From the NCBI RefSeq assembly GCF_003018255.1, contig NZ_CP027440.1: a DNA stretch of 64,000 bases; one strand, given 5' to 3'. The translations under genes were made by a program, and so were the position numbers. Within the stretch, counting starts at the first letter, position 1. The number at the start of each line of letters is the position of its first letter. Below the pieces are notes generated by a model. The model did no database searches. It was given only the letters and a program-made list of their open reading frames with translations, and had not been told where the DNA came from. This DNA is from Escherichia coli. Lineage in GTDB: Bacteria; Pseudomonadota; Gammaproteobacteria; Enterobacterales; Enterobacteriaceae. Below, one piece after another: positions 45,886 to 47,691 of the stretch.

Positions 45886-47691
45886 TTACTCATTCCGTAA
45901 CGACTTAATCAGCTCTGTCACGTTCTGCTGTTGCTGCACCAGGAACGCCTCCAGTCCCATTTTCCCCGTCGCGATGTCATCCAGCATTTGCTCCCACAGT
46001 GCAGTGGTGCCTGGATCTTTCAGCGTTTCCGGCAGGGCGTCAATCAGCGTGCTGGCGGTATCCGTTGCCAGCAGGAAACGACGCTGCTTAATCAGATAGC
46101 CGCGCTTAAGGAGCGTCTGGATAATCCCGGCGCGGGTGGCTTCGGTGCCGATGCCCGCGTTTTCTTTCAGCCGCTGTTTCAGGCGTTCATCGCTGACAAA
46201 ACGGGCGGCATTTTTCATCGCGGCAATCAGCGTCCCTTCGGTGTAGTGCTCCGGTGGCTGGGTCTGGCGGGCGCGAACGTCCACCTGTTCCACCTAGCAG
46301 GTTTGTCCCTGTTGCAGGGCGGGAAGTGCCTGCGTTTCTTCCGGTGAGTGCGTTGCCATTTCGCGCAAAAACAGTTGTCGCCAGCCGCTGACAATCACCA
46401 CTGAGCCACGGGCAGTCAGCGTTTCCCCGGCGCAGTTCAGGCGCAGGTCCGTTTTATCCACTTCGTGGTCTGGCAGAAACTGCGCCAGAAAATGGCTGCG
46501 TACCAGGCCGTAGACCTTGCGCTCGCTGTCGTTCATCTGCGTCAGATCTACCGTTTTACGGGTCGGGATGATGCCATGGTGGGCGGTGATTTTGCTGTCG
46601 TCCCACAACCGGGAGCGTTGCTGCAGATTAAGCTGCGTGGCGAGGGGCTGGAGTGAAGCGTCGCTGGCGACCAGCGCCGCCAGAACTTGTGGTGCTTCAT
46701 CGTGCATGGAGAGCGGCAGATAGCCGCAGTCGGTGCGCGGGTAGGTGGTGGCTTTATGGGTTTCATACAGGAGCTGGGCGATATCCAGAACCTCCTGTGC
46801 GCCCATGCCCCACTGTTTTGAGCAGGCCTGCTGCAGGGCGCTGAGAGTGAAGGCCTGCGGTGGCGGCGTTTTCTCCCGCCGGGTTGTCACGTCCATTACC
46901 AGCGCGGTTCCGGCTTGTTGCAGGCGTGCTGTGGCCTCACGGGCGGCGGATTCGCGGATGCAGCGGCTTTCGTCGTCACAGTACGCACTATCCGGCTGCC
47001 ACTGCGCCAGAAAGGAACAACCCTCCGCATGCAAACGGGCATCCACCCGCCACCAGGGGCGGGGCGTGAAGCGGGCGATCTCCCGGTCGCGCTCCACCAC
47101 CAGACGCAGGGTCGGCGTCTGCACCCGGCCCACGGAGAGCACGCCCTTGTGCCGCCGGTTCATTAGCGTGCAGGCGCGGGTCATGTTGATGCCGACCAGC
47201 CAGTCGGTGCGGGCGCGCGCCAGTCCGGCCTGATACAGCGGAAAGGTGCTGTCGCCGGGACGCAGAGTGGCGAGCGCCTTGTGGATACTGGCCTCATCCA
47301 GCGCCGACAGCCACAGCCGCTGGACCGGACCGCGCCAGCGGCATTGTTCCAGAATTTCGCGGGCGATGGTTTCGCCTTCGCGATCGGCGTCGGTGGCAAT
47401 CACCACTGCATCCGCCTGTTTCAGCAGCTTTTCGATGATACGGAACTGCTTATGCACCTCCGGGCGGATCACCAACCGCCATGCCGGGGGAATAAACGGC
47501 AGCTGTTCCGTCCGCCAGTGTTTCAGCGCCGGATCGTAATCCTCCGGCGCGGCCATGCTCAGCAGATGGCCGAAACACCAGGTGATGGTTACGGTGGCGT
47601 TATGCAGGTAGCCGTCGCTGCGGTTATGGGCGTCAAGAATTCGGGCGATGTCGCGTGCCTGAGAGGGTTTTTCGCACAGGTAAAGTTGCAT
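45886..47691 (-). pseudogene. topB: DNA topoisomerase III (TopB-like) interrupted by a single in-frame TAG
   Basis: N-terminal ORF (MQLYLCEKPSQARDIARILD..., 465 aa) ends at an amber codon (complement of 46294-46296); the reading frame continues immediately as VEQVDVRARQ... for another 135 aa. Confidence 0.75.

Follow-up and report, generated by a model that had tools for sequence, protein, structure and literature searches.

A probable Dcm-site amber mutation in the topoisomerase III gene of an ICE integrated at leuX in Escherichia coli

The topB gene of an ICE integrated at leuX in E. coli is interrupted by an in-frame TAG codon, which is almost certainly a genuine and inherited nonsense mutation that has turned the gene into a pseudogene. 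Considering all the data, the best explanation is an inherited CAG-to-TAG change at a Dcm site in this gene, and we regard this explanation as highly probable. The whole stretch of DNA analysed, 64 kb in length, is referred to as the window, and its relevant features are collected in Table 1. The pseudogene as such is already known, as public annotation flags the internal stop, and it represents an ordinary case.

Table 1. Positions in the 64-kb window of the interrupted topB gene and of the landmarks of the ICE that carries it.
Feature	Position	Strand	Remarks
leuX, tRNA-Leu(CAA)	590..674	(+)	ICE integration site; supP amber suppressor locus; wild type
Left 15-nt repeat CGAGTCCGGCCTTCG (attL side)	654..668	(+)	Within the leuX 3' end
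ICE tyrosine integrase	897..2573	(+)	Intact 558-aa ORF
ICE-borne topB, DNA topoisomerase III	45886..47691	(-)	601 codons + TAA; pseudogene through one in-frame TAG, as judged from translation, Pfam, alignment to E. coli Topo III and the PGAP 'internal stop' on an identical sequence
Untranslated remainder of topB, 135 codons + TAA	45886..46293	(-)	TQPP motif, decatenation-loop-aligned region, GIGTEATRA motif
In-frame GTG, codon 470	46282..46284	(-)	Possible restart site only; preceded by AGGTG, which overlaps the stop; start of a 132-aa fragment in a public gene caller
Mutated Dcm site (probable)	46293..46297	unstranded	CTAGG on the gene strand, CCTAG on the plus strand; CCAGG in CAG orthologues
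Amber TAG, codon 466 of 601	46294..46296	(-)	CAG, GAG or AAA in orthologues
N-terminal ORF, 465 aa, TAG-terminated	46294..47691	(-)	Toprim and catalytic Y317 kept
Right 15-nt repeat CGAGTCCGGCCTTCG (attR side)	60562..60576	(+)	Imperfect continuation ACCTTCGCACCA; right end of the ~60-kb ICE

The plus strand reads cta at 46294-46296, giving TAG on the minus strand, on which the gene lies. Past this codon, the same frame continues with a GTG at 46291-46293 and stays open for 135 codons up to a TAA at 45886-45888. An uninterrupted topB frame is absent owing to the TAG at codon 466, and PGAP calls the gene pseudo with an internal stop. When codon 466 was filled in, the resulting 601-aa product gave one unbroken match to Topoisom_bac (Pfam PF01131) across the stop, at residues 150-584 (E=3.7e-119, 398.8 bits). 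A single alignment of residues 1-584 of this product to residues 1-592 of E. coli Topo III crystal-structure chains also spanned the TAG (E=3e-130). Both halves therefore belong to one gene, and the preliminary description was correct in reporting an in-frame amber that splits topB, with a 465-aa ORF followed by 135 aa without a shift.

We then considered what is retained and what is lost in the truncated product. The N-terminal part contains a Toprim domain (PF01751, residues 2-118, 58.4 bits against a Pfam cut-off of 23.1 bits), in which residues 101-105 form a DADRE motif with the acidic metal-binding residues, aligned with DPDRE in E. coli TopB. The Topoisom_bac match includes the catalytic-tyrosine core, and the catalytic tyrosine Y317, in the motif TTYPRTD, aligns to Y328 of E. 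coli TopB and lies upstream of the stop. Residue 466 itself aligns to approximately L474 of that enzyme. Since residues 208-482 align to 1cy9, a fragment of E. coli Topo I comprising domains II and III, the stop cuts domain II some 16 residues short of its end. Downstream of the stop, residues 494-511 align without gaps to residues 502-519 of E. coli TopB, which we take, by its numbering, to be the Topo III-specific decatenation loop. Also lost are a conserved RQTQPPxxYTE motif and the GIGTEATRAGII motif in the C-terminal half of domain IV. Missing the final ~16 residues of domain II and all of the C-terminal part of domain IV, the 465-aa fragment should be catalytically dead, as predicted from this anatomy.

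Comparison with orthologues allowed the original codon to be approached. The orthologue of E. coli strain Res13-Lact-ER01-35, which aligns over 1806 nt without gaps at 92.9% identity, has CAG at codon 466, in agreement with the earlier proposal that a single nonsense substitution interrupts the ICE topB. Of five E. coli orthologues compared at the DNA level, three have CAG at this codon, a fourth GAG and the fifth AAA, and Q, E or L occupies this residue in 14 proteins of the 90% cluster, which come from Salmonella, Klebsiella, Citrobacter, Enterobacter and E. coli. The position is thus variable, and was never a stop among the orthologues compared. The ancestral codon was most likely CAG (Gln) in the context TGC-CAG-GTG, a reconstruction drawn from orthologues that are only ~92-93% identical at the DNA level. 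Ancestry from GAG or AAA is the alternative, but each of these codons needs a transversion to reach TAG.

In the CAG orthologues, the context TGC-CAG-GTG contains CCAGG, a Dcm (CCWGG) site, where the window has CTAGG; three orthologues read TGCCAGGTG at the site where the window has TGCTAGGTG. The changed base is position 46296, now A on the plus strand and formerly G; on the coding strand, this base corresponds to the second C of CCAGG. Five other CCWGG sites are still present in the gene. The C of CAG occupies the inner, methylated cytosine position of the Dcm site. Of all possible nonsense substitutions in the restored gene, 3 of 183 fall on Dcm 5-methylcytosine positions, as do 3 of the 71 that are G:C to A:T changes, so that a nonsense change would land on such a position by chance with a probability of ~0.02-0.04. 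Among 5426 complete E. coli genomes, 5367 carry dcm. When a 5-methylcytosine in a Dcm site deaminates, a CTWGG/CCWGG T:G mismatch results, and such mismatches are the target of Vsr repair (PMC2715241).

We consider it likely, from the sequence context, that deamination of a Dcm 5-methylcytosine gave rise to the TAG. The inner C of CCAGG, normally 5-methylated, would have deaminated to T, and the resulting CTAGG would have escaped Vsr repair, changing CAG into TAG. Translation would then halt after residue 465. The ICE encodes a cytosine methyltransferase of its own, which we considered as the source of methylation and rejected: this protein is only 26% identical to Dcm over 214 aa and therefore probably differs from Dcm in specificity, leaving the host Dcm as the probable enzyme of relevance.

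Across the whole 64-kb window, CCWGG occurs 156 times, and the two deamination products CTWGG and CCWAG occur 26 and 24 times, respectively, counts that are consistent with efficient maintenance of Dcm sites. We also scanned the GTDB representative genomes with the pattern ACCTGCNNNGTGGAACAGGT. This returned 39 matches, all in unrelated taxa and none in an enterobacterial orthologue; about 35 matches are expected by chance for a pattern with 17 fixed bases searched in 298 Gb on both strands.

The interrupted allele is widely shared. Two complete E. coli genomes in RefSeq, JNE23-011 and JNE112863, both from humans in Japan, contain the 1806-nt gene at 100% identity, and in both PGAP annotates topB as a pseudogene with the note "internal stop". 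The exact 465-aa product was found on 590 public contigs from NCBI, ENA and Logan, including E. coli KTE75, in a collection of 15 billion proteins, and the ICE neighbourhood around it was the same in 24 of the 24 contigs that were read out of the 590. Over 64 kb, the window differs from JNE23-011 at 27 positions, and the TAG is common to both. GCA_026279995.1 shows 4 differences from the window in 21.4 kb, none of them in topB, and also has the TAG. In the same protein collection we found neither the restored 601-aa protein nor the 135-aa fragment, and a database search with the restored 601-aa sequence did not reveal an otherwise identical intact allele. Of the options left open by the preliminary description, it is the true pseudogene that agrees with the RefSeq/PGAP call on the identical gene.

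The element that carries the gene is an ICE of the PFGI-1/PAPI/SPI-7/ICEHin1056 type, ~60 kb in length, that resides at leuX in an E. coli lineage. In the nearly identical region of JNE, PGAP annotates a tyrosine integrase, a MobH relaxase, a GI-type T4SS (TIGR037xx proteins), TraD and PilL2, together with a module comprising ParB, DUF2857, STY4528, PFL_4669, DUF3158, topB and STY4534. The features that identify this type of ICE, namely a leuX-adjacent integrase, MobH, the GI-type T4SS, TraD and the ParB/STY4528/STY4534 module, were all found. At the right end (60562-60593) lies an imperfect copy of the leuX 3' end, which reads CGAGTCCGGCCTTCG-ACCTTCG-CACCA as against CGAGTCCGGCCTTCG-G-CACCA in the tRNA.

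When the JNE annotation was translated in the window, 64 of the 66 annotated ICE CDS were intact. Apart from topB, the CDS that was not intact is a small hypothetical ORF (9058-9430, minus strand) between mobH and ardC, in which the window has an extra T at 9392 relative to JNE23-011. This T, which may be either a genuine indel or an error in a homopolymer, shifts the frame at the start of the ORF. General decay of the ICE can be ruled out, as the topB lesion is single and the remaining CDS are intact, including the integrase, relaxase, T4SS genes and TraD, and the earlier wording of 'element decay' was overstated. The integrase is flagged by PGAP in JNE23-011 as 'incomplete; missing C-terminus' (897..2144), although the sequence there is identical to that of the window. 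Since the window contains a full ORF of 558 aa, the same length as the integrase of strain C10 that is annotated as intact (90% aa identity), we treat the 'partial' flag as probably an annotation artefact.

Several accessory genes are carried by the ICE. Near its right end, at 57271-60100, a C5 DNA cytosine methyltransferase (26% identical to Dcm) and a Vsr homologue (35% identical to E. coli Vsr) are adjoined by a protein with an NmeDI_C Pfam match, a set that resembles a restriction-modification system equipped with very-short-patch repair of its own. Three further modules, at 15443-22202, 2772-4533 and 53211-56305 of the window, are a chaperone-usher fimbrial operon with a tyrosine-type DNA invertase in front of it, an AbiEi/AbiEii toxin-antitoxin pair, and a DUF262 (GmrSD_N) and DUF3696 ATPase pair. 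These are likely to be defence and adhesion cargo.

The chromosomal flank provides some indication of how the allele has travelled. Clustered at 26-194, in the 5' part of ahr, are 17 of the 27 positions at which the window and JNE23-011 differ, amounting to ~9% divergence, and positions 195-5362 are identical. No complete E. coli genome shares the flank of the window at 99% or better, the best match to positions 1-600 being 97.8%. This suggests either a recombination breakpoint inside ahr or the presence of the same amber-carrying ICE in different chromosomal backgrounds. The divergent patch ends ~460 nt outside attL, and the ahr divergence could reflect recombination of the flank rather than horizontal spread after the mutation. 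Additionally, protein accession numbers for the chromosomal alleles and the ICE proteins of JNE23-011 fall in the same series, which hints at one lineage.

What the loss of the enzyme means for the ICE can be approached from knockouts in related elements, although these conflict in direction, with less transfer in one ICE and more excision in two. Disruption of orf11 (topB) in ICEHin1056 lowered transfer by up to 100,000-fold (PMC3739013). Inactivation of PbTopoIIIbeta in Pectobacterium HAI2 raised excision 10^3- to 10^4-fold, and in a topB3 mutant of PPHGI-1 both xerC expression and the circular intermediate were increased (PMC6220960). By analogy with these knockouts, the amber allele should impair transfer and/or deregulate excision, and for any particular phenotypic consequence the case is evenly balanced. 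The topB-null ICE is integrated in hundreds of assemblies with its other core genes intact, and such stability sits uneasily with the hyper-excision seen in HAI2 and PPHGI-1. Stable carriage suggests that the effects in E. coli are mild, that the host TopB compensates, or that the ICE has hitch-hiked clonally.

We looked for relaxed constraint past the stop. Relative to the orthologue L003, synonymous and non-synonymous differences numbered 67 and 22 upstream of the stop and 24 and 5 downstream, giving no signal of relaxation (Fisher p=0.46). Such absence would be expected if the mutation arose recently compared with the 7% divergence. In E. coli no107 (NZ_CP075374.1, 201-2026), the ICE topB has been broken independently by a 1-nt deletion near codon 68, and the annotation there lists a 'hypothetical protein' and, after it, a topoisomerase III of reduced length.

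A real inactivating mutation may also have been selected rather than neutral, if the host gains from the loss of the island's Topo III or if this loss fixes the island. This reading overlaps with our best explanation and concerns why the allele persists. The amber allele is common, being found on 590 contigs; it is the sole lesion in a core gene of the ICE; an independent frameshift has occurred in no107; and knockout of the homologue strongly alters island behaviour in three related ICEs. However, the frequency is accounted for just as well if the allele has hitch-hiked in a successful clone, a single context is common to all contigs read and the accession series hints at one lineage, while the published knockouts lowered fitness or transfer and brought no improvement. 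We therefore consider selection unlikely. It is similarly doubtful that the amber allele is anything more than passive decay, whether by substitution of the host TopB, sufficiency of the fragments or of Gln readthrough, or selection of the loss as domestication.

Beyond annotation, where the split topB is to be recorded as a true pseudogene and no assembly artefact, the finding matters little. It offers what is probably a clean natural example of a C-to-T amber mutation at a Dcm site, and the lineage provides a naturally occurring null allele of the island Topo III, within an ICE that is otherwise intact, for testing the role of the enzyme in excision and transfer.

Two-subunit type IA enzymes exist, such as the reverse gyrase of Methanopyrus kandleri, and the interrupted gene could in principle encode a split enzyme, with termination at the TAG, restart at one of two GTG codons, and assembly of the 465-aa and ~132-aa pieces into an active topoisomerase. 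One GTG (codon 467) directly abuts the TAG and a second in-frame GTG (codon 470) follows 6 nt further downstream, where the public gene caller begins its 132-aa ORF; the AGGTG that overlaps the stop is complementary to the 16S 3' end, and the break lies near the boundary between domains II and IV. Yet the GTG codons and AGGTG are ancestral, as intact orthologues contain them too, and have therefore not been shaped for restart. The stop also falls ~16 residues inside domain II and not at a clean boundary, and no comparable split topB was seen among the cluster members read. Restart followed by assembly of an active enzyme is thus very improbable, and from the sequence the codon 470 GTG is a possible restart site only.

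Decoding of the amber by a host or ICE suppressor tRNA, or programmed readthrough, so that useful full-length TopB is made, had also been raised in the preliminary description, and proved to be without support. Position 466 accommodates Q, E, K and L in orthologues, so an inserted residue would probably work. In E. coli, near-cognate misreading of UAG is often by tRNA-Gln, at a basal level of ~10^-4 to 10^-2, and this would restore the ancestral Gln at that low level only. In contrast to what is expected of a programmed recoding site, the stop is conserved in none of the orthologues, and such a site is therefore unsupported. The sole tRNA in the window is leuX, with a wild-type CAA anticodon. 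In JNE23-011 the anticodons of glnX (CTG), glnV (CTG), glnW (TTG) and glnU (TTG) are all wild type, and the strain carries neither supE nor supB. A supF-type tyrT/V allele occurs in 0 of the complete E. coli genomes, and a supD-type serU allele in 1, a K-12 strain; the 155 supE-allele records among the matches listed are all laboratory K-12 derivatives. At the loci checked (leuX, glnV/X/U/W, tyrT/V-type and serU), no amber suppressor was found in carriers, and the supE, supF and supD alleles are absent from carrier genomes. We accordingly give suppression or readthrough hardly any credence.

A sequencing error had also been suggested, but the probability that sequencing or assembly produced the TAG and that topB is in fact intact is negligible: although a single-base difference is the kind of change that an error could in principle make, there is no homopolymer at the site, contigs from independent sources share the exact truncated product, two complete genomes have the identical gene, and at least three ICE copies that differ slightly elsewhere have the same TAG, which excludes such an error.

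Among the closest known systems, E. coli TopB (PDB 1D6M/1I7D) is of the same family and architecture as the ICE gene product, with Toprim and Topoisom_bac domains and the TYPRTD tyrosine motif, but is a host enzyme of 653 aa, whereas the ICE copy has 601 codons and is interrupted at codon 466. The Topo III of ICEHin1056, SPI-7, ICEclc, PPHGI-1 and HAI2 (orf11 topB, PbTopoIIIbeta, TopB3) has the same place in the replication/stabilisation module, in which ParB, DUF2857, STY4528, PFL_4669, DUF3158, topB and an ssb-like STY4534 lie beside the GI-type T4SS, a likeness judged from gene content. ICEs of the ICEHin1056/SPI-7/ICEclc family have been described as sharing topB (PMC3739013; PMC12388829). 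The island Topo III is intact in those ICEs and the phenotypes come from engineered knockouts, whereas here the null is natural and fixed in a lineage that has been sampled widely. ICEEc2 of E. coli BEN374 is a PAPI/pKLC102-like ICE (PMC6761156) and, like the present one, is a PAPI-like element in E. coli, a comparison made by description only; it is found at a tRNA-Phe gene and not at leuX.

As regards the mutation itself, the amber hotspots in lacI are reportedly situated at CCAGG, as described by Coulondre et al. in 1978, and involve the same change of CCAGG to CTAGG, turning CAG into TAG. Those Dcm hotspot systems represent a laboratory mutational spectrum, whereas the ICE topB is a natural allele in a mobile element, in which the ancestral methylation is no longer observable.
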